DNA from: a virus
Taxonomy: Duplodnaviria > Caudoviricetes
DNA length: 64,000 nt
IMG/VR virus record: IMGVR_UViG_3300021254_000027
Coordinates: 41,543-105,542 of that record
Strand: one strand, 5' to 3'
Within the stretch, counting starts at the first letter, position 1. Each line of letters begins with the position of its first letter. The notes beneath the pieces are model-generated. The model ran no database searches, was not told the origin of the DNA, and saw only the letters and a program-made list of their open reading frames with translations. This document shows positions 1 through 53,164 of this stretch, piece after piece. The position numbers and the translations under genes are program-made.

Positions 1-760
1 CTGTACGCTCCGCTGCAATTAAATTAAGAACAGAACCTTCAGTATTTGCATCACCATCTAATTTGGTGAGGACTGTTGTATGTCCACTAACAGTATCTTG
101 TAAATTTTCAATATCATTCTCTATACCACTAACTTTGGTCTTTAAATTTCCAACGTCAGTTTTTAAAGTTCTGATTTCATCAGCAAGAGCTTTAAATGTA
201 GTATATTGTGTTTCAGATCCAAGCAACGCCGCAGTAGCTGTCGCAACAGCATTAAGAATAGAACCTGCTGTATTAGCATCGCCTTTAAACATCGCAATGT
301 CTGCCGCAGCGGAAGTTTTGAAATCTTCAAGATTTTCTACTCTTGTTTTTAATCTATCAAGCTCTTCTGTAGTAGCTACACTAGCTTTTGTAACAACAAG
401 ACGTAATGTACCATCGTCAGCAACAGTTGTCGTAATATCAGTCACAACATTACCTGTTGGGCTGCTATTAACTCCGACAACGCCGGCTTTATTAATCTGA
501 ACCCAAGAATTGCTAGTTGAATTCCAACGAGCTAAGATATTGCCTGTTTTTACATAATAAAGCGCAGTTTCATAAGCATGACCAGTGGCAGGTAAATCAT
601 TAACAGTATTAACTGGAATGAAATCACCAAGACGGATACGTTTTGTACCATTGTCTATATACATTGCACTTTCATCAGTGGTTACATATATAGTACCATC
701 TTGTACTTGCGCAGGCAAATTCGCTAATAAACCACGTTTAAACTGAATATTAGCTGGCAT
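1..760 (-). CDS. Tail fibre-like structural protein, partial (runs off left edge)
   Basis: ATG at 760 after AAAGGAG RBS; MPANIQFKRGLLANLPAQVQDGTIYVTTDESAMYID, an N-terminus typical of phage fibre proteins, then coiled-coil with repeated GDANTxGSxLN; open to base 1. Confidence 0.65.
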   Translation of the reverse strand, partial: MPANIQFKRGLLANLPAQVQDGTIYVTTDESAMYIDNGTKRIRLGDFIPVNTVNDLPATGHAYETALYYVKTGNILARWNSTSNSWVQINKAGVVGVNSSPTGNVVTDITTTVADDGTLRLVVTKASVATTEELDRLKTRVENLEDFKTSAAADIAMFKGDANTAGSILNAVATATAALLGSETQYTTFKALADEIRTLKTDVGNLKTKVSGIENDIENLQDTVSGHTTVLTKLDGDANTEGSVLNLIAAERT

Positions 761-781
761 TTATATTACTCCTTTCTTTAA

Positions 782-1717
782 TTATTCTTCTTCGTCAATA
801 GACTCCCAAACATACTAACCATAATTATTAATCATGTATGTTACATAATCTTCGACATTATTATAAGTATGGCCCTCTGGATCGGTATAGACAGATTGCC
901 CACCAGAAGAGGAAACTGTAACCCAACTTCCAGTTGCATTTAAGAACAATTGTGCCTTCTCTGCCGTAGTTAGCGTACTAGCAGCAACAGGAACAAGTCC
1001 AGAAACAGTTCCATTAAATAAAGGAATAATTGAGTCAGCATTATTTGCAAGCTCTGCATAAATACCCGTAGCGGGAACATTAACTAAATCACCAGTTTCA
1101 GGATCAGTTGTAGAACTTGCTTTATGTCCAATTAAACTTTCAAGATCGGCTGTAGTTGCATAACCATTTAAATCAACGAAAGGACCTAATTCAATCCAGT
1201 CAGTTCCATTCCAAGCGTATTCTTTATCACCTACTTGATAAACATCGCCCTCAGAAGGATTACTGATTAAATCTAAGTCTGTAGTCGTTCCCTAGAAGTG
1301 GAATGCACTAGCTGCGGCAGATTGTAAATTTGCAAGAGCAGTTTGTAAATTACTAACTGTTCCCTCTAATGTAGTTACTCGTGCCGCAATAGGATTAGAA
1401 GATGTGTCTCCAATGAGAACCCATCCATCTGTGCTTGAAGCATAAACAAAAGCTAAAGCACTACCATCACCATTTCTTACAACAGTAATGTCGCCCTTAA
1501 CCACTGGAGACGCTCCGACAATAGCAGCAATAGCATCAGCATCTGTCTATTCTGCTTGTCGTGTACCAATATATACATGAGCTTGTCCAAAAGGAGTTTC
1601 GCCACGATACAACTCATTTGTATCAAGCAAGAAATATAAAGCATTATTTTGTTTGGCTTCAAGAGCAGCATATTCCGCAGCGGAACCAAACTTAAATAAA
1701 ACTTTTTGATTCGGCAT
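782..1717 (-). CDS. Tail fibre-associated protein (~311 aa with TAG=Gln)
   Basis: Track ORFs 1547..1738 and 1292..1504 share a frame and are joined by TAG; continues through GDVYQVGDKEYAWNGTDWIELG to TAA at 782-784. Confidence 0.7.
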
Positions 1718-1764
1718 TATCTCTTCACTTCCTTTCAAACTAAGTATCTGTCTCTTTATAAGAT

Positions 1765-1798: not shown

Positions 1799-1810
1799 CA
1801 ATAGTATTTA

Positions 1811-3811
1811 TTAAGTTGCTGTATAACTTCGAGTATCTTGTCCAGTTGTTACTAAACCATATTTAGTCTTTTCTATTGTTAAAGTATATGTCCCAGTTGC
1901 AGTTGGTCTATAGGTTGGAGTTGTTGAGCTCGTTAAATTGCTCCAGCCTTCACTGTTCCATCTATATCTATAAGTGGCTGCTGAATCCCAATTCTGAACA
2001 GACCCTTGTATTCCACCATCAAAAAGTGAAGTACTGACTGCCGGAGGGGTAAGTGCTGCGCTGACAGCAGTAGCAGCAGCTTCTATAATATCGTTAACAG
2101 TTGTACCACTATCTTGGACTGTATGCCCGTTATTACCCCAAGTAACAATATTGTTCGCTACAGCAGTTGCAATACTATCAATTTGTCTAGTATTAACAAC
2201 CTTATTTAAACCAATAGTCTCAGCAGTAATATTATGAGGGTTGCTTGCAGTAGTATGAGTATTAATCGCACTTTCAATTTTCGCAAAAGCACTATTAATG
2301 CTATCTGTTTCTTCTATCCCTGTTGTAGCCAATGCAGAGATCCCTGTTAATGCGAGAGATCCAACATTAGATCTTGATACAGTAAAAGCACCAGATGAAC
2401 TGCTTAATGTTAATCCAGTAATTACATTGCCTGTACCTGTATCTGAAAGTGAACAAGTTGGAATAGTTACTGTTGTAGCATCTAGCGCGGTGATATGACC
2501 AGCTTGATCTGTAGACATATAAGGGACATTAAACGTCATACCAAACTAACTTGTTGGAATTGAAGAGGTTCCTACATTAGTTTTAGTGCCAAGACCATTT
2601 AAAGCATGTCCAATAGTAATCTTTTTATCATTCGCTCCAGCGATATTAATCCACTTATTGCCGCCTTCAATAGCAAAACTATCGACATAATTTGCTGCTG
2701 AAAAACTACTAGTATTACCAGTTATAGCAGTAGCTGCAGAACTATTACCGGCTGTTACGGTTTTAAAACCATAAGGCAAAGTATAGGCAGTAGTAGATCG
2801 AGCAGTTATATGTCCTGCTTCATCCTAAGAAAAATTATAAATGATAAAAGTTCCTGTCGCGCTATTAAAATCGACTCCAGCATTTGGAGTAGTCTAAATA
2901 TTCTAAATTAAATGCGCTATAGTAATTGTATCATTTTCCGCATTGCCAGCGAATCTAATCCATTTATTGCCCGCTGCCAAAGTAGCAGTATCTACTTGCG
3001 TATCAGCTACAATAGAAGTGGTATTAGTAGTAATATCAGTTACAGCTGTCGCATTACTAATTGCAATGGTTTTAAAGTTATACGATAAAGTTAAAGTCCG
3101 TTTAGTCTAAGAACGAATATGCCCAGCTTCATCCCAGGTTAATTCATAAGTTACAAATGTTCCGCTATTATTTAAATCAGTTGTCACAGTTTTTGATGTA
3201 TCAATACTACGAACTAAATGCCCAATAGTTAATTTATCATCTGCAACATCTGATGTCCCACTCGCCGCAAGTTTAATCCAAGTATTGCCTGAATTAATAG
3301 TTAATGTGTCTTCATTATTATCTGCCACCATAGATCCATTTACGGCGTCTAAATTATTAACAGCATCAGAAGAGCCCGTAGTGACTTGAATGGTTTTAAA
3401 CATGCGCAAATCTTTAATGCGCTCATCAACAGTTTCAGTTCTATCATTTAAGATATAAGCTAAATCTGAAATTGAATCCATGTTTGCGGCTGGCGTTGAC
3501 TATGTAGAATGCCCATTTGTTGCAGAAGTTAATGCTGCTAATACGCTAGGATTACGACCATATAATTCACGTAAAATTGTATCATAAGATTCTAATTTAG
3601 TAGTTAAACGTTCGGTACCAGATTGGCCCAACTAAACATCTGCTGCATGAATCAAAGCAAATGTATTACCATTCTTTTGAGTTAAACCTGCCGCCAATAA
3701 TACTGTACCATCATAAGTACGAGGTTTTGCTCCGTCTACTCCTTGAACTTTACTGTAATCATAAGGAGTAGTATATAAATTTTTATTAAATACATTATTT
3801 AAAGTAGCCAT
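1811..3811 (-). CDS. Tail fibre protein with three ~100-aa repeats (~666 aa with TAG=Gln)
   Basis: ATG 3811 after TAAGGAGG; track ORFs 3107..3481, 2546..2779, 1811..2539 are in one frame; repeats FKT...GNxWI...ITIxH...DxAGHI. Confidence 0.75.
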
Positions 3812-3824
3812 TTATATATCCTCC

Positions 3825-6656
3825 TTAACTTAACACAACAGATGTAGATCCAAGATTCTTATTTGAACTCTGCCAAATAGTATATGAAGCAGTTTCATTA
3901 TATTCATTAGTAAAATTGATATTTCCTAAATTATCAAAACCGCCTTCAAAACCGCCAACCTTAAATATTGGACGCGCCCATGATGCAGGACACAAATAAT
4001 AAATATGCTCTGTAGCGCCAGCATTAACAGAAATAGTTTTACTTATTTTTGCAGTTGCAAGAATACTGCTGAATGAACTTAGATTAGTGCTCAACTTACT
4101 AAAACTATTTAAATTAGCAAGAGTATTATCATCACCGACGCCCCAATAGGCGCGATACGCCCAAGTTGCTTTTACACTTGCAGTTTTAGTTACATCTCTT
4201 TCGTCTGTTACACTCAATGTCCAAGTTATAACTGTGCTAACAGTTTTACCAGTAATTGCATTAGAATCTGTTACCGTATTAACCGCGCTTGCATCATATT
4301 CAGCTTTATTAGTAACATAATAATTTTTCTCAAAAACCGCTGAATTAGGAGTATAAACTGTTACTCCATCACTACGTGTAATTTTTAAATCTTGACGAGG
4401 ACCTTTATTTAAAGTATATGATAAAGAAATATTATTTAATCCTTTACCAGCTTCAATTAAAATATTATTACCACTCTATTCAGCATCAGAACTAGTGATC
4501 TTAAATGAATTAATCATCTGTTCAACATACTGGATATCTGCCATTTCATGTTGCATTTTTTTAATTGCTTCTCCTAAAGTATCTGTTGCAGTTACTGCAT
4601 GCAAACAACTATTTCCATAATAGCCCTGTTTTGCAGTTCCATTAACTGTATAATTAACATCAAAATATCTATCTGATGCAGTATTATTATAACTTAAGTC
4701 TAATGTATCAAGAGTATAAGAAACAGTATAACGCCAATTTCCTTTATTATCTAATAATAAGTTACCTAAATTATTATTAATAATTTGCGGTACAATATCA
4801 TTATATGGAAATTTAGTTTCTGCCATAGTAATTTTACCAGTGTCCGCAGTTGTAATGACAAAACGGTTTTTGGCAAGATTCATATCTACGTTTTCAATCA
4901 TATCACGCGCGCGATTAATCATACCAATCAAAGTACGATCATCGCGTGAGTCTTCATTACTTAAATTAAGACCGACGATACGATTTACTAATGCAATCGC
5001 TCCACGCACTGTAGATGGAGATCCAAAACTTAAATCATTTACTACTGCTTCTTGTCCAGTATTTGGACGACCAACAGGTTTTGTAGCTTGATATACTTTA
5101 GTAAAGCGGAAATGAGGAACTTCTGGATTATTATTATAATAAGCCTCTCTACGATAATACTGAGTCCCAGCAGGAAGAGCAGATTTATTTGCGACTTTAT
5201 ATGCGCCTACAGTATCATCAAACCAGTATTCGCCATTTGCGTCTTTAGTCCATATGTTTGTATAAGATGGTAAATAATAACTTCTTATATTGTCATCTCC
5301 ACCAGTATGAGAATCTTGGTAAAGCATCATTTTATTAAAGCGCATAGTATTACCTGCGCTAGTACCAATACCATAATAAATATCTTCATCCGCGGTATAT
5401 TGCAAATGATTCGCAATCGCATGAGCTTTTTCTATTGCAACAGTATTTTCACTTGTGCGCTAAGTTAATGCTTCATTACCTAAACTATAAGTGCGACCAA
5501 TTAATGCAGTCATCGTATTGGCGCGACCAAAAATACTATCAGAGTCAATAGTACAATTAGCTTGATTACCAAAATCTTCTTGCAATAATTGTAATAAACG
5601 CTATTCAGTAAACATTGCATTCCAAACTTTAGCAATAGCATTACCAATACCAGGTAAATGAATATACCAAGAATAAGTATCATTCGCAGTTACACCATTA
5701 GTTCCAACTGCTGCGTTTTGTTCTCCATAATATTTTTGCCCGCTTGATTTAAAAATGTAATTAATTGCATTTTTTGGCTCTTCTCCATTTTCAGCTTTGC
5801 GCAAATAGTTGCGGTCCATAGTAAAGCCTAAGTCATTCCAGAAAATATCTCCATGGCCTTCTTCTTCCCAAGTCTCCCAAGTAGTTCCACTATTTTTATA
5901 TTCGCCAGTTCGATAAGTAATATCGGCATCTGTCTCAATAGCATATTCTCTTTCAGGAGTTAATCTTGGTGCTGCAACGCTACTTCCTAAAGTATGAATT
6001 TCATGACCAAAAACCGCTGGAGTGTGCATATAATAATCTAATGTTGTGCTATTGCCATCAAAGTACGGAGAAATAGGCTTAGTATTTGGTGGATCAATTA
6101 CCAAATGGAAATTAGGAACTACTGTATTAAGTTCAGCTATCATAACATAACGATAGTTGCCAGTAGTAGTATCTACATGCTTCATCCAAACAGTAGAGTC
6201 ATATCCACGTCCATAATTAGTAACATCTGTATTATATGCCGCGGCAAATGGACTTGCATTTGCGGCAGTATATGGCTAATAATTTAATTCGTTAGATGAC
6301 CCAGTAGAAGTACAAATATAAAAGCTATTCGCGCTATTCTTCTAAAATAAATCTTGATAAATTTGGCCTTCGACTTTAGTTAATAAAGTACTAATATCAA
6401 CTTCTGTATTATCAACAATTGCACCAGAAGGAGTGGTTTCATGAGTAAAATGTACATCACCATAAAACTCGCCATCATAATAATAGCCAGTAATAGGTGG
6501 TTCATCATACTCAATTAAAACATAACGTCCGATAAATACTCCATCAGTAGCACATTGACTATCCATCATAGTGCGAGTTTTATAAACTCTATCGAAAGTG
6601 AATGCAGTTCGATTCGAAGCTGATATATTACCATAGAATCCTGCCATTGCACTCAC
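3825..6656 (-). CDS. Tail/baseplate-associated structural protein (~943 aa with TAG=Gln)
   Basis: Track ORFs 6342..6656, 5601..6185, 4476..5405, 3825..4217 are in one frame; the first three end at TAG and the last at TAA. Confidence 0.7.
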
Positions 6657-6985
6657 TCCGTTTCATATATAAAATCAATAATAATATAAGCATTTTGGTT
6701 ATTGCCTATTGTTTCAAGAGAACCATTATCAAACATGATACTGGTAATATTGGCAAGACCTTCAACACTTAATTCATAAATACCAGTAGCGCCTACTACA
6801 ATAGGAGTTTCACTAGCATTTAAATAAAATTTGGTTCCTGGTAAAGTCTACACACCAAGTTGTACAATGGGATATGTGCGCGGAAAGGCTGTGCCATTCC
6901 GCAACATATCCAAAGTCAAGGTGGCAGGATAATTGTTTTTTACGCCAGGACCAAACCAACGAATTTGACCAACTTGCTTCGCCAT
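6653..6985 (-). CDS. Small tail-associated protein (110 aa, one TAG)
   Basis: ATG 6985 after AAGGAGG; MAKQVGQIRWFG...QLGV[TAG]TLPGTKFYLN...YIIIDFIYETE-TGA. Absent from the track because the TAG splits it. Confidence 0.7.
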
Positions 6986-6999: not shown

Positions 7000-9900
7000 T
7001 TAAATAATTCTATCAACTGCGCGATTTGCAGTAATAGACATCATTCCATCATGCTAAAGCTATATACTAAACGATTTAATTAAGTATTCTCCGTCAATAC
7101 CGCTTTGATTATCATGAACTCTAATACGAGTATTTGGTTCTAAATAATAAATTGGAATTGCTGAGATAGTAACTGTTTCTTGATAATATGTCGCATCATA
7201 TAACATAGAATCTAAAACTTCTTTAGCGCTTTTCCCCTACGCACTCATTTTAAAGTAATCTGAAAAAGGAGGTACAAGATTAATACGAGCATATGCAAGA
7301 TTTTCTTCTCCTTTAACAGGTTCATAATCTGTACTTACAAATAAGAGCTAAGGAGTCTCTCTAAAGTATATGGCTTTAACATCTTTATCATTAACAGATT
7401 TTGAACGACGACCAATCGCTTCTACCGAATATTGATAAAGATTCATATCTCCGCTATCCTAATCAAAGAAATCAATCCAGAAAAATAATGATTCTGGTTC
7501 GACAAAAGAGATTGTATTATTCGATGAGTTCCATTTTACATATTGCGGATTCCAATATCCATTTTGTTCCCATTCTGCATAATCATCTACTGTGTTATCT
7601 GTATACTCCATTCGCCCATCGTCGGTCTAATTCGTTGTCCCATTATCATTATAAACAGTTTTAACTGTTTTCTAAGTACGATATAAATGCGGCCAAAATT
7701 CTAACATATCGGTAAAATAAGCATCATAACCAGTATTAAAAGTATCTTGCCAAGCATCTAATTCACTTTGAGTTTTGTCTATATAATTTGATGATTTAAA
7801 TTCATTTAATAATGCTTCTTCCAACTCTTGATTACGAATAATCTCAGGAAGTGGCATATATTCATCTTCATCATAAGTTGTATCATCTGGGACTTCAATA
7901 ACTGTTGTAACATATTCATCCCAAGTACGAACCGTTTGTTTTGTAGTAGTATAATAAGTATGAAGTTGATTCCGAATTTCATCAATAATTACCAACAACT
8001 AATTTAATGATTGCGGCTATGTATAATGTTTACCAGGGAATAACATAATACTTATATCAAATAATGAACTAGATACTACACTAAACCCATATGAATCTCT
8101 ACGACCAGTAGTTATACCAGTTAATCCATAAGCACGACCGACTGCATTTAATACAGAGCGTTGCGCTCGACTTAATTGAACATCAAAATAATCATCATCC
8201 CAAGAAAAGTCAAATAGCTCTAATGTTTTACGTTTAATATTTTCATCATCTACATAATTTAAAGTGGTTAACATATTAAAAATCATACCATTATCATATG
8301 AATAGCCATTTCCATCATGTCGAATTGTAGAATCTGCCCATCCAGTTTGAGTAATCGCATAATTAGCTGCGGCATATTCTGGACGAGTGCCTTCTGGATA
8401 TTGCCCAGCCAAATCATTATTAACAATCTATGGATCTACTAAAGCCATTTGAGCTAATGCAATTTTAATATAACTACTAAACATTTCTAAAACGAATAAA
8501 TACTATTCAACTTCCTAAGCCGGCACATCCATTGGCTCATATTCATCTGTGCCTACAGTAATTTTTACTTCACTTTTTTCATAAGCTGGTGTTTCAACAA
8601 TTTCTGATCTCGTAACTTTTTGCACTACTGTTTCTAAATGTGTACCAACAGGAGGCTTAACACTATCATCAGGTTTTTCAATTTCACCAGAGATAACAGG
8701 ATAAGTTTGTGCCAATGAATAGTCATATCCTAATTTTGCATTCATTTCGGCTAATTGAGATTCTGTTAATTGTAAATTAATTTTATTTACATCTGGGCCA
8801 TATAAAAAACGCTTATTTAAAATAGCTTGCTCATATTCTTCTTCACTCGCTAATGCGACAAATTCCTATTTAAGATCATCATAATAATAATAGTCTTTAT
8901 AAGATGCCGCATTTAAAGAATCATAATCATAATGAAAACGTAATGCTTTTTCATAAGGAGCTAAAGCTTCACCAATAATGCCCTTTCCTATTGCTTGTAC
9001 ATAATTGGTTTGTGTTTTTAAAGCCTATATCAACCCAGCAATTTTTTCTCTCGCGGCAAGATTATCTCTTGCCATCTAATAGATTAATTCACGCCAATCA
9101 TATTGCCCGCCAACAGAATAAGACTAATATGGTTTTTGTTCTAACAAACTATAATAAACTTGCGGCTTATGGTCAATAGCATAACGTAAATGAATTGGAA
9201 GAGCTTTCCCCCCAACACCAGTTAAATTGCCCCAAACTGCAAAATCGTTTTTAATAACATTAATCTACGGTTTATTCTAAAAACTTTCAATTAAATAACC
9301 ATCAACAAAATCATAAATACTGTTACTACTATTAGCGACGCTATCATAATAAGTTTCATTATCATTTACAATAGCATTTGTCCAAGTTGAATTAAAATAA
9401 ATTCGTTTACGCTAAAAGATAAATCTACCGTTAATGTCATAAAAATATTCAAACTCTCCAAGCATTTTAACTATTTTATCAAGCATTTCTGTGATAGTAC
9501 CACCAATAGCAACAGTTAATTCTCCAGTATAAGTAATATCTGTCGCACGATAGCCAGCTGTAGTATTTATTTCATTAGGGTCTACCCGTTTTAATAATAC
9601 ATACCAAACGCCACCGTATAAGATTGGTGCTAAATTACTGGTTACTCCTTGTGCTTCACAAGCTGCTTCAAATAAACCTTCACGAGGATCTGAGCCAGAA
9701 CCAAAAAGTATTTGAGTAGATTCAGCTTCTGTAAATACTGGAGTTCGAGTTTGTTGTACACCAGAAAATGTACTTCCGCTACTACCAGTAAAATCCCAAC
9801 TAATGCCATCTAAATATTCTGTAACTTCACTATCTTCAAACTAATTAAAGATATATAAAATAGAGTCATCAGCAATATAATCTAATAATTCTACACCGCA

Positions 9901-10491
9901 AGTGTCTAAATCATTAATTACAATATTACGATACGGTTCTTGAGCATATTGATGGACAGCTTCTCTAATAATATCATAAATTGGGATTAAATCTTTAGTC
10001 ACACTACCATCAGAATGAGTTGTATAAATAGTACTAAATTCATGCGCCGCAAATAAATTACCAGATATATCTCCATTGATAAGACACATCTTATCTTTAC
10101 CCTAAATAGTGATAGTATATCCGCTATTATTTAAAGTAGAACTAAAACTACTAATAACATACATTCCCTGCGGGAACCATATTATATCTTCATATCTTGG
10201 ATCAATAGTATTCCGCAATCCAAGTTCAACAGTAAATTTAGTATTTAAACTCCAAGAGATTTCTTCAATTTGTACTTGATTTGTAATTAAAGTAATATTA
10301 CAAGTACGACGGACCTTAGAAGAACCATCTACATTAATCGAACCACTAACTACATTACCAGTAATTTCTGCTACAGATTCTTCGTCCCAGTTAAGAGAAA
10401 TGATTTTAGCAAATACTTCTTTATTACGATGCTAATCTAACTTAATTAAAAAATCTTTGTCTAACAAAGCAAAAGTATTACTTAAAGCCAT
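7000..10491 (-). CDS. Baseplate hub/tail-tip protein (~1163 aa with TAG=Gln)
   Basis: N-terminal GSINVDGSSKVRRTCNITL motif as in siphophage hub-type proteins; track ORFs starting at 10089, 8745, 8412, 7998 are all in frame; TAA at 7000-7002. Confidence 0.7.
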
Positions 10492-10495: not shown

Positions 10496-13400
10496 TCACC
10501 CCCCAAAACGAGGCTTACCCATTTTACCAGAATCTTCATAAATTACTCCTTCATTTTTAGAAGAAGTGGGCTTTGTAGTTGATGTTGAAGTTTGATTAAT
10601 TTTATTTATATCTACACCTTCAAGTTCTAATACTGCTTTTAACATTGATAAATAATTATCTCGCACAGAACTATATTCAGCATAAGTAACAAAAGGTCCA
10701 TTATAACTATGATCTTTACTATATGTACTATAACTATAAGGTACCCAAATATCCTATCCAGTAAAAGCAGTCCGCTCTTCACGAGTCAAACGATCAAAAT
10801 GCTGAGTGTTTTCATTCCAAACAAAATATGAATTATCTTCATACATTCCATCTGGCACATTATTTACTAAAGCTTTCGCGCCCTCAGTAATATTAATCAA
10901 CTATAACTAGTACGCTGCATAATCGCGCGCAATAGCGTTATATTGTTTCCAAGCATTATACAAACTTTCGTTAAGCCCAAGAGCAACCTATTTAGCTTTG
11001 TCTCCTTCTTCAACACCATACGTTAAAGTTAAGAGTTGATAAATAAAAATAGGTTGTACTTTAGTGCCCCAAGCCATATAAGTTGGTACCCAAGATGTTG
11101 TAGGAACATGATAAGAACCAGTTTCTGCGATATCAATAATCTCATTGTCTAAGCAAATTTGAGTAGGAGACAATCTATATAATGTTCCATCTGGCTATTG
11201 AACTGGGACATAAGGCCGTCCATTATTAAATTCATATAAAAGATTTGCATCTGCATCAAAGATATAATAAATATCTGTACCAGGGACAGTAAACATAGCA
11301 TTATTTACAAATAAGTCTCTACTACTTCTAGTGCCATATGGCAATACGCTTGAACTACTTTCAGTTTCTTTAGTATCTTTATCTTGTTCAAATTCAATAC
11401 TCCAAACTCGAACTGCTCTATCTAATAAATAAGTTGATACTCGCTCATTAAATTGATCAATCGCATTTTTTTCTCGTGGAGTCGCACTAAAATGGTAAGT
11501 CTCTCCAAAAGCTTGTAATGATCCAATTTCATATACCATATCACTTAAAGTAAAATCCATAGAAACAATACCACGTATCTAATCTTTTAAAGTAGAAATA
11601 GTATCCATATAATTATTACCAGTCATAGAAGAACTAACTCCTAAATATGATGGACAATGTACTACATCACGTTGTACAATTTTAGTTACCCCATCAAATA
11701 CAGTTGAGTCTCTAGTCCAAGTACCAACCGTAACCTATCCAGGCATATCCTTCCATACATTTAAAAGTTTAAGATTAGATACTGCACTATCTTCATCAAA
11801 CTAGATTTCATATTGACCAGTTGCGCCAACAAGATAATTAGTTACACCATCATAAGTAAACCAAACTTCGCGGCCAGACATTCCAGCGTCTCGATAATCT
11901 GTACTAACACAATCTTCAAATCGAATATACTAACATTTATTACCTTTAAGAAGATTGGTATTTTTAAATTCTTCAATAGCCTTATTTAAAGTTTCTTCTG
12001 ACACATTAGTTAAATCAGAAGAACCTTGAATAACAGAAATCAAAGTATTTAAATAGTCCGCAAAGTTAATAACGCCAAATCTAAAAGCAAGAGTCGCATC
12101 TTTATCAACAGATAAAAATCCATACTCTCCTAGCTTAGAAGGAGAATAAGCATCAATTTCATCAGCTGTACAAGAGAAAGTATGAATCATGCGCGAAAGC
12201 GTATCATTTGGAACTAATGAAACATTTGATAAACGCACAAGATAATTACCTTCTCCTGGACTTCTAAATAACTTAATATTACCGTCGTTAAGCCAATTCA
12301 GAACTTCTAATTTAAAACGACGTTCATAAGCAATATTATCATCAATAATATCAGTAGTATTGCTCCACCATTTATCCATTTTTAAATCTTCTGTGCGGCT
12401 AAGGAAAAATTCATTTTCATCACTTAAATAAGAAATTAATCCAGATATAGGAAACTCTTTATATTCTACATTACCATTTCTAAAGAAGAATGGATATTTA
12501 CTTCCTAATGTATTTTTCTTAGTATCTTGAATAACAGTTTTAAATGAAGTAATTTTAGGATTAAAACGAATTTTTAACTGCCGTTCACCGTCATATAAAA
12601 AAGCATCTTCAAATACTACATATACATCAGGCGCATACATGCGCGTAGAATAAATATCATAATTGTTAAATTGCTAGATAGAATAACGATATGTTTGTCC
12701 TTGTTCAACAGTAAAATCATGAAAAACTGCGTTAGCCGGTAACATACCAGTTAAATTAAAAGTAGCAATTTGAGTTTGAATAGTAAAATCTTCTGCGCTA
12801 GAACAGCGAGAAATCATAAACATACCATTATAAGTAAGTTCAGTTTTATTCGGATCATTTGGTTTTAAAAACAAGTCTACACAGCCATTATCATAATCTA
12901 ACTGCGCAATAAGATGCGCATCAATTTCAGGGACAACAGATGAACCACCTACAATAATATAAAGAGGTCCATTTACCTATAAACCATTCTAAGTAATAAC
13001 TGAATACTATAAACGATAGCGTTCATCATCTTGGCAATTATAATTTAATATAAAACTATCAGTAGATTCATATTGCGCATCATCGGTGTTAGCATTATGA
13101 ACTTGCCAATCTGTTGTAGTTAATACTTTTCCCGCAGTATCATATAATGTAAAACGGTATTGATAACATTTTTCAGAAGGATCATTAATATTAGAATAAT
13201 GTCCAACATAATATGTAACATCAATATTCGCACTATAACGATTTAATCCTAGACAAGAAACAGATGGATATGCAGTACATTTAACAATACTAATTGTAGA
13301 ATAATAGCCTATATTACTTGCATCTGCTGCATCAATATAGGCTAACTAAATTTTATAATATTTTCCGAGATTAATCCCTTTAATATTGGTTAAATCAAAT

Positions 13401-41194: not shown

Positions 41195-41206
41195 ATTTTC
41201 ACCACC

Positions 41207-42456: not shown

Positions 42457-43061
42457 GATTCTTTATCTCCTATAGGCTCCCAATTTGCGACAACACCATC
42501 ATCATCTACTTCTCCAGTTCTATTATCAACATAAATAATAGTAGATGGATTAGCAGGATTGCTGAAGTTACTCTGTGGTTCAGTATCTACATACTGTTGA
42601 GGTACTGCCGACTGATTTAGTACGGACCAATTAGACATTACTCTACCATCATGTCCATATCTGCGACGCTTATATAAACGCTACGCATGAATATTTTCAC
42701 GATGATTTTCAGTCTTTAAATTTAATAACTTCGCAAGATGATTTGCTTGCGAAGTCATTTTAAAATCTGAGCCAGAATATTTCATCCGAGTCATTTCAAC
42801 TGAGTTAATCTAACGATCTAACCAAGCCTATTTCATTAACAAAGCAAAAATGTTGATCTCTTCTTTAGTGAGATCAACATTATATACTCCCTATTCAGCA
42901 TCATAATCATATAATGCGAATCGAGGAAACTCGAAGTAAGGAATGGCATCAAGCAGATACTATTTAGCATCACGGATGGTATCTTCTTCAGTAAGCTCTA
43001 AATACATATCATCAGTGATCTTACTCAAGAAGGCATCTATAATAGTATCAAATGATGTCAT
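42453..43061 (-). CDS. Head-tail adaptor-like protein (202 aa with TAG=Gln)
   Basis: ATG 43061 after GAGGAGG; MTSFDTIIDAFLSKITDDMYLEL...DFKMTSQANHLAKLL; in frame with track ORF 42453..42638. Confidence 0.65.
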
Positions 43062-43063: not shown

Positions 43064-43672
43064 TTAACCCTCCTCATTAGAGGTTTTCTTTACAACATTA
43101 TACTTCGGAGAAGTTCTGCGCCCAGAAGTTTCCTTAGCTGCAGCTGGCTGTACTCGACGACCAGTAGGAGTCTCAACTTTCATTCCACTGGATGTTTCTT
43201 CTGCAGCAGCAGCTGCTTCTGCTTCAAGTTCAGCCTTATGCTTAAGCGCAAGAGATATATCAAATCCAGTTTTCTCCTTAATCGCACTAATCTTACGAGT
43301 ATCAGTCACTGGAAGCTCAAGCGCATACTTCTGAACCAAATCAATAACGCCGCCAGGTGCAAAATCAAGACAGTCTAATAGGGCATCAACTGAGCCATTC
43401 TTTAGAAGATCAATAACTCCCTTGTCGTCTAAATAATACTCAGGTTCTACGTGAGATGTAGTCTCATTCACCGTTTCGGCATCTTCAATAAATAATTCAT
43501 CGCGCAAAATAGAGAGCCCACCGCTCTTTTGAGCTAGCGCAATCAATTCTGCCGCAGGCAGCATCTTAGTCTCACCGGGTGCGAATTCTCGGCGTACGCC
43601 CAAGTCTGGCACTCTATAGATTACGATGGAATTACTTCTATTGCGAACCTTTACCTTCTTGTTAGTATCCAT
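43064..43672 (-). CDS. Head-module protein (202 aa, TAG-free)
   Basis: Likely true start MDTNKKVKVRN at 43672 after AAAAGGAG; directly downstream of the capsid gene. Confidence 0.65.
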   Translation of the reverse strand: MDTNKKVKVRNRSNSIVIYRVPDLGVRREFAPGETKMLPAAELIALAQKSGGLSILRDELFIEDAETVNETTSHVEPEYYLDDKGVIDLLKNGSVDALLDCLDFAPGGVIDLVQKYALELPVTDTRKISAIKEKTGFDISLALKHKAELEAEAAAAAEETSSGMKVETPTGRRVQPAAAKETSGRRTSPKYNVVKKTSNEEG

Positions 43673-43700
43673 ATTTTTTAAACTCCTTTTTCTCTTACGC

Positions 43701-43724
43701 GCGGGCGCGTATATACGCGCCCGC
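43701..43724. other. Perfect palindrome/hairpin downstream of the capsid gene (stabiliser, processing site or terminator)
   Basis: GCGGGCGCGTATATACGCGCCCGC; no clear U-tract. Confidence 0.55.
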
Positions 43725-43738
43725 ACAATTTATATTAA

Positions 43739-43895
43739 TTAAGCTTTAACTACGTAATAAGTCTTTCCTTCAACAAGTTCAGAATCAGAGGTCTTTACGT
43801 AATTATTATCAACCTTTTCATAGTAAGTTCCAATGTTAGCAACATCAGGATTAGTTACAACTTCATACTCAGGCTCAGTTACCGCCGGGCTAGGG
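43739..43895 (-). CDS. Putative +1 frameshift extension (50 aa) of the major capsid protein
   Basis: CCC-TAG at 43895-43890; the +1 frame reads SPAVTEPEYEVVTNPDVANIGTYYEKVDNNYVKTSDSELVEGKTYYVVKA-TAA and has no plausible independent RBS/start. Confidence 0.7.
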
Positions 43896-44960
43896 AGATA
43901 CCGACTGCTGATCGCCGGTATATACTCCAAACTGACCTTCAAGGTCCTTATTTACATAGATACAAATGTCAGGAGTCATAACTACACCGACACCGACCTT
44001 CTTGTATACCTGGATCTCACGAGAACGGTCCTTGTTAACATATTCATCAACAATAGTAGAACCTTCCATGACAATCTTAACAGGCTTTACATTTCCAGGA
44101 AGAATGTAACAATAGCCAGGATCAATAACCTTAGTAGTATGAGTTGCATCAGTGAATCCCTGAGGGAGAATGTTAATAATATGGTTACGATAAGATGCGA
44201 AACGTCCATTGTTCCACAAAGTATCCTTCATATTATCAGACCAACGTACATAAGTACCATTATCAGTTTCAGGAAGAATAGTTGCGGCAAACTCTTCAGT
44301 GCAATAGATGGTAGGAGTACCATAAGCAGAAGAGATAGCGAGCAAGCGATCAAAAGCCTGCTGATCAAAACCATTTACCTTAACAGTATTAAGAGCAGGG
44401 AGCTGAGTCAAACCTTCCTTAAGAGCAGCACCGACTTCCCACTGAATGAGCTCTTCGATACCCTCCATAACAATCTGAGTAACCTCAGCAAAATCAGCAC
44501 GTCCATCCAAGAACTCTTCAAGACCAATCTGCGCGGCTCCGCCGATAGCACTGGTCTGAACTTCGATTGGAGTATCCTTACCAAGCTTAAATACTTCGTA
44601 GATACCAGCCAAACCAACCTTGGTAATGAACTGCTTTGCACGCTGACGATCATGCTTACGCCAGAACATAGTAGAATTGCCCTGAGCGATGGTCTTTACT
44701 TCAGCAAACTTCATATATTCTTCTTCAACCTTCTTAGGAAGAATATCGTCCATAGTCTCCTCAATGATGGAGAAGATAGTATTCTTATTCTCACGATAAA
44801 GTGCGAATGTACCAGCGAGCTCGTTCAATTCCTTACGAAGAGTCTCATTAAGAGCATCATAAGACAAATTCTCGCCATTGAATGAGTAAGCAACAGGAGC
44901 AGAGCGATCAGCCTTAGCAGTTGCTTTCATTAACTTAACAAGTTCATTTCTTTCCAACAT
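43875..44960 (-). CDS. Major capsid protein (356 aa to TAG at 43890; 361 aa to TGA if TAG is read as Gln)
   Basis: Size, position after protease/scaffold, strong RBS and optimised codons; LNELAG...YRENKNTIFSIIEETMDDILPKKV. Confidence 0.85.
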
Positions 44961-44981: not shown

Positions 44982-45821
44982 TTACTTTACACGCATTACC
45001 TTAACGGCCGGCTGCATGTCACCTAAATTATAAATCTTAACAACCTGCCACTGGAATGGGGAATTGGTAGCGCCAGTTGCACTCAAATAACCATGAGCAT
45101 TAGGAGCAAGAACAGAACCTAAAGTCACAGTAGCATCAGCAATAGTATTAGTAGTGAAAATATCGCCTTCGTGAGTCTTAAATACACGAGGAACCATCAA
45201 ACCAGCCCTATTGTTAGCATTAAAACCATCAGCACCAGGAGCCTTACCAGTACGGTCAGGCTGTGCATACTCAGCCATCTGAGGAACATTCAAGCGCTCT
45301 ACCTCATAGCTATTACCAATAGCATAATGATTACGACCATAATCAGGAGCTACACCAGCTGCATTATCATGAGCATCTGGATAAATCTCAACCTGAGCCT
45401 GAATCTTCTTCATCATATCCCAATCAGCAGAAGTCTGATAACCATTAATACGAACGCCATTAGGACCAAAAGCCTGACCAACGCCCATACCAGTAGCCTG
45501 AGCACCAACACCAACTGGAGAATAAACACGACCATTATAGTCACGACGAATCATTGCGAAGTCCTGATCGGTTTCGTGATCACGATAAACCTTAACTTCA
45601 TTGAAAACAAGCATCCATTCACCGATGCCAGAGAAATTAACTACGCCATTAGCATAGTCGTACTTTACGAACTGACCATTCTCAAGAATATCAATATCTG
45701 CGGCAACAGGCAACTGAGCGTAAATTTCGCCAGTACGCTGAGCACTGAGATGGTTTGGCTCGACCTGACCGAAGCCATAGGTTACGAATTTAGCTTCGGG
45801 AGATAAACGTGTAAAAGCCAT
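44982..45821 (-). CDS. Capsid-associated (decoration/cement-like) protein, 279 aa, TAG-free
   Basis: Between scaffold and MCP; FGQVEPNHLSAQRTGEIYAQLP; strong AAGGAGG RBS. Confidence 0.65.
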   Translation of the reverse strand: MAFTRLSPEAKFVTYGFGQVEPNHLSAQRTGEIYAQLPVAADIDILENGQFVKYDYANGVVNFSGIGEWMLVFNEVKVYRDHETDQDFAMIRRDYNGRVYSPVGVGAQATGMGVGQAFGPNGVRINGYQTSADWDMMKKIQAQVEIYPDAHDNAAGVAPDYGRNHYAIGNSYEVERLNVPQMAEYAQPDRTGKAPGADGFNANNRAGLMVPRVFKTHEGDIFTTNTIADATVTLGSVLAPNAHGYLSATGATNSPFQWQVVKIYNLGDMQPAVKVMRVK

Positions 45822-47178: not shown

Positions 47179-48801
47179 TCACTCCTTTCCAGCAGATTCT
47201 CTATTAGCGATAGTTTTATCTGACTTTTGGCTGTCAGCCTTCTCAGGTCTGCCGCCTTTTTTTTCATCGCCAGCCGCGGCTTGTTTTATTGCACCAGCTG
47301 CTTGTTTATTTCCAACCTATTGATTTCCACCGCCACGATTACCAAGTACATCTTGACTACTCATAGTAGAAGACATAAGAGGCGGGATCATGATTTCAGA
47401 CAACTTCAATACCTCATTCTCAAAATGCGCCATTGCAATAATAGAAGATTGAGAATGCCCAAGAGCAATTTGTGGTAACATCTTGGAATAACCAAGTTGT
47501 GTATGCTCTTTATACATTTTAGACATTTCCTTATAATTATTTATAGTAGTTTCAAGCATATTAAAATGTAAACAATACTTTTTATTACCAGGAAATTTAT
47601 TGCGCAAGACACGACTATAAAGTTCATCAAAACTTAAAATTAAATCACGAATACTTGCTTCATCAACAAGAGCCGCTTTTTCAAGAGCTAAGTTACTATC
47701 TGCATTAAATAAACTATGTGAAACACCAGCTTCATTGTAAACAGTACGCTCAACTTTTTCAAGTTCATCTGTTGTAGTCGTTGTACGAGTATCGGCTAAG
47801 TCTGCAACATCTACTTCCGCAAATGTTGTCATAACATCAACGCCAACAGCTCGCCGCAACATCTAAACTGTATTATTGTGAATATCTTTTGCTTCATCGA
47901 CGTCGAAGATTAAATCACCATTTTTATCAAGTGGCAATTTTTGAATAATAATTTTTAATAACTATTGCATCATCTTACGACGGTCTAAATCTTGTGCTTC
48001 ATCCAAATCAAGGATTTTAATACAAGTGTTAATCAATAGTGGAACATCACTACCGTTAAGATTAATCTTAAATGCATGGTCAGGATCAAGTACCCACCAA
48101 GTCCCATCATGTTCCTTGGTATTAAGTTTACCTTTCTTATATGCTATATAAGCTTCCGCAAACTCTTTTGGATACATTTTTAAAACACGCATTCGCATTT
48201 CTACATCTGCGAATTTATCATCAAAAAACTTCGGATTAAATTCAACTGCTGGAACAGTACCAACTTTAAACCGAGTGCGGCAATAAGCAATGGGTAATTC
48301 CTAAAAAGTGAATCCTCGCTTAGTTTCAACAACATAGCCATAATAGCAACCATTAACAATTACTTTTAAAGCTATTTCACCGCATTGTTTCTTGACATAA
48401 CTTTCATCCATATAATCTAAGGCTTTTGAAAAATCAGCTAGAACTTTTTCATCTTTGACTTTTTCATCAATGATGTAAGGAGTAATATACCAGTCATAAC
48501 GATAAAGAGTAGCAAAATATTTGCACAAACGTTCATACAAACCACTTACTTCAAAAAAGTAATTTGATATTGCACGCATTGCTTCATAATCTTTACGTGC
48601 CATTGCTCTAAGAATGACTGCCTTATTTCCATAACTGCGGTTTTCTTTCTTCAAGCTACCTAGATCAAGGATCGCATCATCTAATGTCTATAGATTAACC
48701 TTAATCTTTCCGTAATCTACTACACTACCATATGGGTCATGGACTTCTGGACGACCAATGATTGAAAAACCTTTGGCATGAATTGCCTCTTGATTTACCA
48801 A
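47179..48801 (-). CDS. Portal protein (540 aa with TAG=Gln)
   Basis: TTG start at 48801; track ORFs starting at 48654, 48198, 47862 are in one frame; C-terminal GGRPEK...SDKTIANRES; TGA 47179-47181; lies between terminase and protease. Confidence 0.8.
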
Positions 48802-48813
48802 TTCAATCACCCC

Positions 48814-49170
48814 TTAATATCCAGCTTTTTCCATAATATAGTCATAAGAAATTAAATTTTCTTCTGTGTAAGGAATTTCAATTAACTTATAACCATTAAG
48901 CGCGCAGAAGCGACGCTTTTTATTGTCGTTAAATTGCTATTGATAGAAACCTTTCTTCCCGCCAAATTTAGCGGAAGGCTCATAATGCTATTTACCCTAA
49001 TATTCGATTAGAAAATCTATATTACCATCATCATCAAATACACAAAAGTCAAACTTTAGCGGGCGACCATTCGGACTATTTAATCCTTCGAACGATTGCT
49101 CCATTGTAAATCGCATTTCGTTATCGCGCAAGATTTCTTCAATTTTAATTTCTCCTCTTGAAGCACGCAT
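48814..49170 (-). CDS. Small PD-(D/E)XK (Vsr/DUF559-like) endonuclease (118 aa with TAG=Gln)
   Basis: MRASRGEIKIEEIL...LKFDFCVF...LIEY[TAG]GK[TAG]HYE...NDNKKRRFC...YKLIEIPY; matches the IEYQGxQHY motif. Not in track. Confidence 0.75.
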
Positions 49171-49179
49171 TTTGTCACC

Positions 49180-50910
49180 TCAGTTCATAAATAACATTTC
49201 ACTAAATCTCTTTTTACGCTTTTTCCGTTTACGATCTTCTTCTTGCTTAATATAATATAATCCATATTCAAACGCAGAAAATTTATCTTTTTTAATACTT
49301 TTATTTGCTTGCTTCAATATAATGTTGACACCTTCATTTTCTTCACGAAGATTCATCATTTCCTCTTTTAATATGGAAGTTAAGGTAAATGGTTTAAGAT
49401 ATTCCGCCCGTTCTTCAGGTTTCATTTCTTGACCACGTTTTGTACCAAGTAATTTAATCTTAGCTACACGTTCATCAATAAGCATTTTTACATGCCCAGA
49501 AGACATTTGAGATTGTGCATTCGCATGAGCTTCAGTATTAATTGGCGCATTTGCCTTTATTATCCAAAGCGCATTTTCTTCACAATTCTCACTACGGTAT
49601 TTCTTATATTCACCATCTTCATCATTTTCCACACCAAAATCAGGAAGTAGCTCATTCGTATCTGGATCTGTTTGTCCTTTAACCATATAGTCAACAAGAC
49701 CAATACCAAGACCATTACCATCAATTACAATCTTTTTTGCTTTATACTTATAATAAAGTTTCTTTAATTTAATAGCTTGATCTTCAAAATGAGTATCACT
49801 CATAGTATCAATATTAACTAATGAAATAAAGGCTAATCCATTTATTTGAGGTGTTACTTTAAAAATACAACTGACAGTATCACAGCCTTTACGACCAACG
49901 TCTGTCGCGATTACATAATAAGCATTCTTTGTACTTCTACCAGAATACTCATATTCAGGTTGTTTTAATATTCTATTGTGATCAAATTGTTCCCCATTAA
50001 AGAAAGCATCTTCAATAGTACCGGACCATCTACTTTCATATTCTCGATCAAAAGAAGCTTCATTAAACGTACCATCCATTTTAAGATCTCGAATAAATGT
50101 TTTATCCAAAAGTCCCATCAAAACAGGAATACGCCAAGTACCGCCTAATACGCATGCGCGATCCGGTTTTACAATTTCCCAAACTAAAATCTATATAAGT
50201 TTATCATAAGCAAATGTATTTTTCCAGCCAGCTGTTGTGACATAGATTTGAGATTTATTCAAAACCTCATTATCGTCTTTATCACCCCAAGGTCCACGTC
50301 TGGAAACGTTCATTGTTGGAATAATAACTTCATTAAGTATTGTTCCGTCAACTCCTACGCATTCTTCTACCAAGCCGCCGTGACGACGTTGACCTCTCGA
50401 AGTTTCGCGCGCAGCGATGTTATCCAAGACCGAACCATTTTTAAACATGTATCGAACATAATCTTTACCCTCCATAGTTTTGCCACGACTCCAATCGATC
50501 TCTTCACGCAGAGGGGGAATCAAATGACATAATTCCTACACTTTAGCTTTAAGAATACTTGAAGCCTATTCTTTACCACCAGAAGTAACAAACAACTTAG
50601 CCCCAGGATAAAGTATGCATCGAATCATTAAAATTAATGCCGCTAGGAATGATTTAGAATAAGCACGAGGAAAAACCGCATACGTATATTTATAACGCAT
50701 TGCGGCTCTTAAAAATACTCTCTAATAAAAGAATAAATGGAAATTCTCTGGATTATTTTTCTAAATTAAAAAATCTACAAATAAATCTGGATATTCTCGC
50801 CAAAATGCAACATACTAACGCGCTACAGGCATCGCTGCCCGCACACGCTCTTCAGACAAACCTATTTTATCAACATTACTTTTTAAGTTAAGTAAATCTT
50901 GTAGTGCCAT
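49180..50910 (-). CDS. terL: Terminase large subunit (576 aa with TAG=Gln)
   Basis: LFFY[TAG]R (Q motif), FPRAYSKS (Walker A variant), SGGKE[TAG]A, LVEE (Walker B), VTTAG, IATDVGR nuclease motif, IDGNGLGIG, KDKFSA. Confidence 0.92.
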
Positions 50911-52085
50911 TATTCTTCATCCTCTCCTAAGAGTTCTCGAATAGTGGCGGCATCTTCATCAGCTTCTTGTTCTACTTGATTATAGTGTTCCAAAAAATCA
51001 CCATCAGAAAGCACTTCAGATTCAAGCTCTTCCATATCTAAGCCAAGAGAATCAGTAGTATCTTCATCTTCTTCTTTACTCTCTTCTCGTGCCATGGTAC
51101 GTACTGCATTTTCAATCAAGTTACCAAGATTCATTTCTTCAGTAACGAGACGATATGTATAATTGCGCAAATCGGCAAGAGTCTCATCAGGCTTATCTTT
51201 TGGCTCACTTACATAGTAACGAGGAATAAAGCCTTCACGCTCACAGAGAAGAATAAATTCATCAATAGCAGAAACATATTCACCAGATTCTGCTTTATTC
51301 TAAGCTGCGGTGAATTTCGCAGATTTCATCAAAGTATCATAAACTTTAGAAATCTTTTGAAAGCCTTCAATATCTCCAAGGTCAATAAGCTAATGTGCCT
51401 TAAGTGAAGTCTTACAGATTAATTTCAGATAATCCTCATGCGCGGGAGTTACAATATCAAAAGCCGCCATCATCTCTTGATATAGCTTTTCTAATTGAAC
51501 CCATTCATAAGGACGATACGCCTTACCCCATTTGATAGTAAGGTATTTCTTATCTTCATCAGTAAGATCATCATCAAAAAACTCTGGTTCATTTAAATCA
51601 ATGGGTGCCGTAGTCTCTTCAGTTTCTACAGGCTCTAGCGCAGGACGATCGGGCATACTACCTTCCGCAATCGCTTTTTCAATCTCTTCACCAGTGTATC
51701 CCTATCTCGCCATTGTTTCAGCTTTATGCGCATCCGCTTCAGCTTTAAGCCGTTCAGTATCATCCCAACCATAATCACGATACTGCTTTAACTTCATTTT
51801 AGACAAATAGCGGCCCAAGATTGTCATACCAGTAAGTTTTTTCTTATTTTGTCCATATCTATTGAGAAGAGTGGTCCATTCATCTTCAATATATGGAACA
51901 TCAATTTCTTCAAGAATCCAAGTATAAGTTTTCGGATCCCAGTTATCAACATGTCGAGTTAAACACTTTTTACATTCGGGCATCTTACCATCAGGAGGAT
52001 ACCTATCTATTCGTTTAGAAGTATAAAACTCATCTGCGTCCATTGTTCGTTTACAAGTTTTGCAATAACAAGTTGTATCAGCCAT
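50910..52085 (-). CDS. Zn-finger protein, putative terminase small subunit (391 aa with TAG=Gln)
   Basis: Joins track ORFs 51702..52085, 51390..51656, 50910..51170 in one frame (checked); CxxC...CxxC N-terminus; TAATG-coupled to TerL. Confidence 0.6.
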
Positions 52086-53164
52086 TATTTAGCCTCCTTC
52101 TTACGACCTTTGGCATTGCGGCATTTCTTACATATGCTATAGAAGCCATCTTTTGATGTCTTGTTGACTGAGAAGAACCTAGTATGAGCTAACTTAATTT
52201 CTCCGCAGCGCGAACATCTCTTCCATTTTCCCTTCTCTTGATATGTAAAGTACCACATTAGAAACTCGTCTTGCGCCTTTTGCGCAATGAGTTTCGGAAT
52301 CTTATTTCGCCAAAGACTACTAATATATTCTATAGAGTGTGTAAAAGCGAACTCCTTCTACAATAAAGCCTAAATTTCTGTATTAGGAATTCTTTCCATT
52401 TTGTACTCTACGATGCGTTTATACATAGGGTATTCGGCAAGTGCCCTATCCATTAATGCCCCAAAATCTAAACAACAATACCAAGAATCACCAAGAAAAT
52501 TTCCTTGGCTACGATTTTTCATAGCTAGATATACTTGCATTAATTCACTACATACTTTTGCATCACAAAAGGATAGTCCAGAATACTTAATCGTTGCGTT
52601 GCCTTGATTATCATATTCAATCCACTCATCCCACAAGAGCGGCATTGAATAAGGACCACTTCTTGTTAATCTTGTAAAAATAATAGGACGACGATAAGAA
52701 TTCTTAATAACATATTGATCTTTGCGCATTTCGATTAGAGTGCGTTTAATTATAAACGCTTCTCGTCCGGAGGCTTGTTTTAACAGTTCTTCCCAGCGTT
52801 CTATGCTTTCGCGCAACTGTCTTAATGGCGGAATTTCTTCAATATCTTTTTTAGTAATAGTAACTTTAGGTTGAAATATAATGTTTTTACCGTTTTCCGC
52901 AATTAAATTATAAATACCATCTTCGCCATTTTCTAGCTAGCCTACCAGACCCTCGTAAGAAGTTTCTCGCTTATTAATCGTAGCCATACGATTATCAGTA
53001 AGAATCTTTCTCTCCTTTTTCTCTTGCTTCTCCATACAAAGCACTAGATAGTCACCGAGAATTTCAAGATACTACTCGCTTGGGTCGGGAGTTTCTTCTA
53101 AAATTAAATTTACTAACTTTAAGCGCTCTTCGGGAGAATCGATTGTATAATCTAATTTAATTAT
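52085..53164 (-). CDS. Putative transcription regulator: HTH-like segment plus C-terminal Zn ribbon (~359 aa with TAG=Gln; ATA/ATT start)
   Basis: AAAGGAGGAG RBS followed 6 nt later by ATA-ATT-AAA-TTA-GAT-TAT; ...EI[TAG]ALL[TAG]KEFAFTHSIEYISSLWRNKIPKLIA...CSRC...CKKC; TAA 52085-52087. Confidence 0.6.

Follow-up and report, generated by a model that had tools for sequence, protein, structure and literature searches.

The window analysed here, a 64,000-nucleotide stretch covering positions 41543-105542 of the 105,542-bp viral contig IMGVR_UViG_3300021254_000027 (IMG/VR; classed linear), spans the late-gene arm and a portion of the early arm in the genome, some 170 kb long, of a siphophage that has an SPbeta-type virion module. 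In the late genes, which lie on the minus strand, TAG is a sense codon, and comparison with related phages supports its reading as glutamine (translation table 15, or code 15); in conserved early genes, on the plus strand, it is a stop. One codon thus has two meanings in a single genome, terminating early genes and standing for glutamine 322 times in late ones. The switch is very probably made by a phage-encoded suppressor tRNA, which would act as a translational lock on the late genes. The original prediction, made from the window's sequence alone, had described TAG-to-glutamine recoding as established in gut phages, and this is indeed so: it has been published for phAss-1 (OQ749652; Babkin et al. 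2023, PMC10607447) and, in structural and late genes, for crAss-like and Lak phages (Borges et al., bioRxiv 10.1101/2021.08.26.457843; Peters et al. 2022, PMC9523058). Both the recoding and the clade itself are therefore already in print, and the window is a further well-supported example.

The two arms are visible from the GC skew and the layout of open reading frames (ORFs). A minus-strand block occupies contig positions 14692-94586 (94586 being window position 53044) and is flanked on both sides by plus-strand genes; the recoded block extends 27 kb outside the window. Inspection of the contig ends for circularity gave no terminal repeat and no convincing ORF spanning the junction.

Read in the standard code (table 11), the minus strand from 1 to 53044 is a run of many short ORFs, whereas with TAG as sense it resolves into 27 abutting ORFs, the largest encoding 4755, 2878, 1163 and 1044 amino acids, and TerL (the large terminase), the portal protein and the tape measure are made whole. 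The fragments ending at TAG rejoin in the same frame, as had been predicted, and the further claim that the joined genes end in TAA or TGA and are often coupled by overlaps holds for all 27 ends, with TAATG junctions at 40661, 42160, 50910 and 52085 and ATGA junctions at 6653-6656 and 42453-42456. A GGAGG-like ribosome-binding site precedes most starts. Tallied over 25 of the 27 ORFs (17,145 codons), the in-frame stops comprise 268 TAG, no TAA and no TGA, so that the TAA or TGA codons named in the prediction as the sign of a decayed prophage occur at no breakpoint. The off-frames of the same genes contain hundreds of TAA and TGA codons (602 in the +2 frame of the 4755-residue ORF alone). Comparison of the two codes by greedy ORF density over the whole 105.5-kb contig gave 0.682 with table 11 and 0.964 with TAG as sense, and the mean ORF length rose from 166 to 424 amino acids. 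Treating TGA as sense gave a density of 0.718. With TAA as sense the density was 0.847 and the ORFs were not longer, an artefact to be expected of AT-rich DNA. The gain in coding density is specific to TAG. Standard-code gene callers shred more than half of the late region, and recognition of code 15 is therefore needed to annotate this phage.

To assign the codon, orthologous ORFs were aligned with those of three related IMG/VR genomes, G001, G002 and G003 (portal identity 89%, 73% and 67%), with TAG masked as X, and the codon facing each TAG was tallied. The commonest were CAA, TAG itself and CAG, with GAA and AAA next in frequency. Glutamine makes up 24% of the partners in the 844 pairs of TAG with a sense codon, against a background of 3%, and the other partners (E, K, A, S, T, N) fit the substitution spectrum of glutamine. 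CAA differs from TAG at two positions, so that closeness by mutation cannot account for the CAA partners. A likelihood ranking that used the substitution frequencies of the same alignments placed glutamine first, ahead of the next residue by 132-171 log-likelihood units for each relative and by 432 overall. Conservation at these sites is about 35%, counting TAG-TAG pairs as conserved, compared with 37% for ordinary glutamine codons. The large terminase (TerL) gives independent columns: its TAG codons 63 (50722-24, LFFY_R) and 115 (50566-68, GGKE_A), which had been placed at exactly the right coordinates, face glutamine in all five standard-code TerLs aligned (Geobacillus E3, Bacillus PJN02, vB_BcoS-136, Skywalker and Lactococcus 949). 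The nuclease codons cited alongside them (48997-99 and 48988-90) were equally exact, and a third TAG was found at 48937-39. Neither the TerL columns nor the codon pairs bear out the alternative outcome, that TAG would align mostly to residues other than glutamine, and together they support glutamine as the predicted meaning of TAG in the late genes.

Over the whole contig the late block holds 41 genes and 25,793 codons, with 322 TAG, 585 CAA and 148 CAG, and TAG accounts for about 30% of its glutamine codons. Within the window 22 of the 27 genes have internal TAG. Four have no TAG at all (13633-14019, 38769-39884, 43064-43726 and 44982-45821), and the capsid gene (43875-44960) has a single one, five codons ahead of its TGA. 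These five genes, which include the tail tube, have a higher GC content at third codon positions (GC3) and prefer CAG. More generally, the TAG share of glutamine codons drops as GC3 climbs (rho -0.46, p 0.004), reaching zero in those virion proteins that are most abundant. Since the proteins present in the virion in the highest copy number do without the recoded codon, the claim that the whole morphogenesis region is recoded was to this extent an overstatement: it stands for the 22 genes and does not for the five that need no TAG. Nor is the block one of morphogenesis genes only, since it also holds non-structural genes and runs on beyond the window to contig position 14692. TAG shows no positional bias within genes, including none toward gene starts, and the +4 base after TAG differs only modestly from that after CAA.

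The other arm of the window behaves differently:

53314-64000, plus strand: early region, rich in GC (about 0.49), with small genes in the standard code and no TAG read-through needed

Plus-strand ORFs tile this region, and 18 of them have translated matches in relatives and are therefore real genes. Five of the 18 end in TAG (54563-65, 57219-21, 61450-52, 62460-62 and 63919-21). The gene at 61713-62462 is one of them, and its G001 orthologue stops at the same residue with TAA. The orthologue of the gene at 57012-57221 is also terminated by TAG, and in both phages the stop is followed by a TTGACA/TATAAT-like promoter and then by the ribosome-binding site of the next gene. In frame, the plus-strand early and replication genes are nearly free of TAG. 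Recoding is confined to the late and structural genes, and the early genes are readable in the standard code. The early TAG stops are consistent with a host in which TAG terminates translation, and with a codon meaning that depends on the stage of infection. Read-through of the TAG at 57219-21 would fuse the 69-residue early ORF in frame to 57285-57632, giving a product of 206 residues (57012-57632); this would need early mRNA to be still translated once the suppressor is present.

The original prediction had pointed to tRNA-CUA, release factor 2 (RF2) or a glutaminyl-tRNA synthetase (GlnRS) elsewhere in the genome. All three are absent from this contig, and the tRNA was found in relatives. 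ARAGORN and the Rfam tRNA model found no tRNA on the contig, which is about 61% complete by the CheckV estimate; as the contig is a fragment, this result is uninformative. No release-factor or GlnRS/GluRS domain was found on the contig or in the relatives searched. Each of the five larger relatives carries one tRNA-CUA. Four of these are the IMG/VR genomes G002 to G005 (149-166 kb, one with terminal repeats), which have 13-26 Rfam tRNA matches each, exactly one of them a tRNA-CUA. The fifth is a 172-kb ENA scaffold that is collinear with the window phage (TerL protein 94% identical, 76-77% nucleotide identity) and has a cluster of 34 tRNAs 24-38 kb past TerL, on the early-gene strand, holding one tRNA-CUA, tRNA-Gln(CUG), tRNA-Gln(UUG) and a PTH2 peptidyl-tRNA hydrolase. 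The region of this cluster would fall in the missing part of our contig, and we infer that the window phage carries the same tRNA-CUA. The PTH2-type gene (L081:19646-20053 in the 172-kb relative) adjoins the suppressor tRNA and both tRNA-Gln genes.

The tRNA-CUA genes of the relatives, which lie outside the window, are 88-95 nucleotides long. Their fold is an ordinary 7/5 cloverleaf in which the D stem has 4 bp. The variable region, of 15-25 nucleotides, makes a hairpin of 4-5 bp; its UGAAG loop is conserved, and compensatory changes occur in the stems. The loci of the long form are:

L081:18232-18324, long tRNA-CUA
L049:3516-3606, long tRNA-CUA
L050:10186-10280, long tRNA-CUA
L052:6763-6849, long tRNA-CUA
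L053:12626-12714, long tRNA-CUA
L082:23343-23430, minus strand, long tRNA-CUA

A scan of IMG/VR for the common anticodon arm returned 75 contigs with 62 tRNA-CUA, of which at least 46 are of the long form (34 unique sequences); these long-form contigs all have one exact anticodon-arm sequence, which was the scan query. The discriminator base is G73 in all 30 unique long sequences that could be parsed, and in 26 of them positions 1 and 72 form U:A or A:U or are mismatched. A weak 1:72 pair together with G73 is the acceptor signature of bacterial tRNA-Gln. The relatives' tRNA-CUA thus bears the acceptor signs of tRNA-Gln, together with U35 in its CUA anticodon, and its variable region of 15-25 nucleotides departs from the 4-5 nucleotide loop of class I. 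Its long arm is a class II trait (Ser, Leu, Tyr), but A73 is never seen and the D stem has 4 bp. Given that TAG behaves as glutamine in the same genomes, the molecule looks like a glutamine suppressor with an added arm, and it is probably charged with glutamine. We found no description of a long-variable-arm glutamine suppressor in the recoding papers that were searched. It is possible, though we hold it only tentatively, that the amber suppressor of this clade is an undescribed kind of tRNA, with a Gln-type acceptor end, a class I D arm and a UGAAG hairpin set on single-stranded linkers. If so, the hairpin could be a handle for phage or host that might control charging, give protection against tRNA nucleases of the host or favour the tRNA over release factor 1 (RF1), and would thereby set the timing and strength of the switch of UAG from stop to glutamine. 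The conserved odd shape is a lead on how such phages bring a host with the standard code to read a codon in a new way. In G005, a 72-nucleotide, very AT-rich tRNA-like gene with the anticodon UUA (L053:12843-12914) adjoins the tRNA-CUA; it is a possible ochre suppressor and may be a pseudogene.

In the mechanism that we favour, the amber-suppressor tRNA(CUA) would be encoded in an early- or middle-strand tRNA cluster within the part of the genome missing from the contig. The cluster would be in the standard code, so the host could express it. As the tRNA accumulated it would out-compete RF1, so that late proteins containing as many as 119 UAGs could be translated, and recoding would serve as a translational lock on the late genes. 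The proteins of highest copy number (the capsid protein, one head protein and the tail tube) avoid UAG and use CAG, which would make their yield independent of suppression efficiency. The model is the one already in print, and regulation of late genes by recoding has been proposed earlier (bioRxiv 10.1101/2021.08.26.457843). Several observations weigh against this explanation. There is no suppressor tRNA on this contig, and the mechanism leans on the relatives. A means of lowering RF1 activity was looked for and none was found, with neither an RF1 inhibitor nor an RF2 gene. Five early genes would be extended, one of them fused to its neighbour, if they were translated after the tRNA appears. 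Finally, the long variable arm resembles that of class II tRNAs and, taken by itself, would point to Ser, Leu or Tyr.

The same data could be read as partial suppression throughout, with TAG still meaning glutamine and its density tuning the yield of late proteins against RF1, with no on/off lock. The fall of TAG share with GC3 to zero in the most abundant virion proteins, the lack of an RF1 inhibitor or RF2 gene and the lack of bias toward gene starts are all consistent with such tuning. However, a protein with 119 TAGs needs near-complete suppression at each site, and the near absence of in-frame TAG from the early and replication modules fits a temporal partition, so that we regard tuning without a lock as rather unlikely. 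Suppression by the host, through an amber suppressor or a code 15 of its own, would require no phage tRNA and no switch, and would agree with the lack of a tRNA on the 105.5-kb contig. It is very unlikely, given the incompleteness of the contig, the tRNA-CUA in every larger relative and the conserved early genes that end in TAG where orthologues end in TAA, as expected with a TAG-stop host.

The long variable arm of the lineage's only tRNA-CUA also raised the question of whether TAG is a sense codon for Ser, Leu or Tyr. The length of these genes and their extra hairpin are class II-like, and G73 is the discriminator base of tRNA-Ser as well, but Ser trails Gln by 133-191 log-likelihood units for each relative, and Tyr and Leu fall outside the six best residues. 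The predominance of CAA among the TAG partners, the TerL codons on invariant glutamine, the absence in all 30 sequences of the A73 that Leu or Tyr would need and the class I-like 4-bp D stem all argue in the same direction, and this assignment is highly improbable. That the region is a decayed phage or prophage with TAGs as inactivating nonsense mutations, as its fragmentation under table 11 might suggest, is almost certainly wrong in view of the 268 TAG to no TAA or TGA in frame, which we count as refuting it, the absence of frameshifts, the intact gene coupling and ribosome-binding sites, the same TAG positions or CAA/CAG in their place in relatives, and the hundreds of near-identical TerL genes in public assemblies that require the same reading of TAG.

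Annotation in code 15 reveals a 4755-residue tape measure protein and an SPbeta-like virion module. The late genes of the window are:

2-760, minus strand: first 253 codons of a late ORF of 506 residues that continues past the window start, its 2 TAG outside the window
782-1738, minus strand: ORF of 318 residues, 3 TAG, weak match to a tail-fibre PHROG
1811-3811, minus strand: ORF of 666 residues, 7 TAG, without family match
3825-6656, minus strand: ORF of 943 residues, 5 TAG, ATGA overlap with the upstream gene
6653-6985, minus strand: ORF of 110 residues, 1 TAG
7000-10491, minus strand: tail protein of 1163 residues, 22 TAG (phrog_32343, phrog_1887)
10496-13630, minus strand: ORF of 1044 residues, 14 TAG
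13633-14019, minus strand: late gene of 128 residues, TAG-free, GC3 0.40, more CAG than CAA
14044-22680, minus strand: ORF of 2878 residues, 43 TAG, immediately downstream of the tape measure, without family match
22668-36935, minus strand: tape measure protein of 4755 residues, 119 TAG, PF10145 at residues 190-397
36981-37505, minus strand: ORF of 174 residues, 4 TAG
37576-38697, minus strand: ORF of 373 residues, 9 TAG
38769-39884, minus strand: tail tube of 371 residues, TAG-free, 11 CAG versus 2 CAA (orthologue Pfam YomU_Tube; phrog_2729)
39903-42160, minus strand: three tail/neck genes of 252, 177 and 317 residues with 5, 4 and 5 TAG (orthologues YomV, YomW, YomX)
42160-43061, minus strand: two small ORFs of 98 and 202 residues with 1 and 5 TAG, coupled by TAATG and ATGA
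43064-43726, minus strand: gene of 220 residues, TAG-free
43875-44960, minus strand: major capsid protein (orthologue Pfam YonB), 15 CAG, no CAA, one TAG at 43890-92
44982-45821, minus strand: head gene of 279 residues, TAG-free, 15 CAG, no CAA
45845-47173, minus strand: head protein of 442 residues, 1 TAG (orthologue YonD_N)
47179-48810, minus strand: portal protein, 5 TAG (phrog_2739)
48814-49170, minus strand: HNH/homing-type endonuclease of 118 residues, 3 TAG (48997-99, 48988-90, 48937-39)
49180-50910, minus strand: large terminase, YonF-like, 6 TAG, those at 50722-24 and 50566-68 on invariant glutamine
50910-52085, minus strand: ORF of 391 residues, 3 TAG (orthologue YonG_N)
52085-53044, minus strand: first gene of the late block, 319 residues, 3 TAG; phrog_5767, labelled 'sigma factor', a label that was not confirmed

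The identities of the portal, terminase, HNH endonuclease and tail proteins are confirmed by PHROGs, and a Pfam search of most tail proteins gave nothing usable. The Yon and Yom labels were taken from collinear orthologues in the 172-kb scaffold, which have precomputed Pfam matches to YonG, YonD, YonB, YomX, YomW, YomV and YomU tube; the window proteins gave no Pfam match in a copy of the database without these families. TerL is YonF-like, with 25-50% identity to standard-code relatives and 25-28% to the SPbeta phages themselves. The predicted proteins, with Yon/Yom families in conserved order and a YonF-like terminase, make this an SPbeta-type virion module. Bacillus phage SPbeta and large siphoviruses akin to it (Enterococcus EF1/EF5, Geobacillus E3, Lactococcus 949) have these Yon/Yom families, the YonF-like TerL and the head-to-tail order in common with the window, but they use the standard code, and in none of them are these genes interrupted by an in-frame TAG.

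The giant ORFs and TAG recoding might suggest a crAss-like phage, a placement that we rejected on the relatives of the portal and TerL (phAss-1, Enterococcus, Bacillus, Lactococcus and SPbeta-type phages). In GenBank, the portal is closest to those of a faecal contig 12 kb long, of phAss-1 and of large siphoviruses that infect Enterococcus, Bacillus, Brevibacillus and Lactococcus. PhAss-1, which is filed under the NCBI 'Caudoviricetes code 15 clade', has the same TAG recoding, with a tRNA-Sup-CTA, and as here reads TAG as glutamine in TerL, portal, tape measure and tail genes. A very long tape measure (3149 residues, compared with 4755 in the window), large tRNA arrays and the lack of a dedicated synthetase are common to phAss-1 and the window lineage. 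It also has the same long-variable-arm tRNA-CUA as the relatives (88 nucleotides, 62445-62532), beside which it carries a 72-nucleotide class I Sup-CTA, whereas the closer relatives of the window phage have the long form only. The kinship with phAss-1 is nevertheless distant, and membership of the genus Phassvirus was rejected: the portals are homologous with only 38% identity over 86% of the length, and the early region had no megablast match among GenBank phages. The crAss-like and Lak phages share the standard-code-compatible early genes, the proposed suppressor tRNA driver and the proposed role in the timing of late expression. They are, however, an unrelated lineage with Bacteroidota hosts, in contrast to the SPbeta-type siphovirus module and probable Firmicute-type host here, and the window lineage differs from them in lacking an RF2 gene and in the odd shape of its suppressor tRNA.

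The host is probably a Firmicute (Bacillota) of the rumen or gut, and the relatives of the window phage come mostly from large-scale gut and rumen-type metagenomes. The analysis adds this lineage of Firmicute phages to those known to be recoded. A search for the host through bacterial genomes that contain a 16-mer of the tRNA-CUA anticodon arm gave mostly unrelated sequences in very diverse metagenome-assembled genomes, and a single match belonged to the tRNA family.

Some individual late genes merit comment. For the 319-residue protein at 52085-53044, the PHROG match is strong (E 3e-46) and the C-terminus is zinc-finger-like, and sequence searches of Pfam and the PDB returned nothing for it. 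If this sigma-like protein really directs late transcription, late transcription itself would depend on suppression. Tail length follows a rule of about 1.5 Å per tape-measure residue, and by this rule the 4755-residue protein would correspond to a tail of about 700 nm.

The single TAG of the capsid gene follows CCC, and the +1 frame entered at CCC-TAG runs for 50 residues, ending at 43739, ahead of a GC-rich hairpin. This extension is 48% identical (E 2e-7) to an in-frame C-terminal extension of the G002 capsid protein. The similarity points to a +1 frameshift at CCC-TAG that would yield a longer form of the capsid protein (43739-43892); a comparable CCC-stop shift occurs in Listeria phage PSA. 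With its G001 counterpart the capsid protein shares 98.6% identity, compared with a mean of 52% over all aligned genes, suggesting that its gene was recently exchanged or else is very strongly constrained.

The GC content of the window is about 0.49 from 53.3 to 64 kb, compared with 0.31-0.38 in the late block. That the GC-rich right end might be host DNA or stem from a chimera was considered and rejected, since its genes are conserved in relatives and the close relative with 94% TerL identity has the same early-region rise. This rise and the CAG-rich, TAG-free make-up of the capsid and tube genes suggest two regimes of codon usage, one host-like, comprising the early and highest-copy genes, and one AT-rich, comprising late genes served by about 34 tRNAs of the phage's own.

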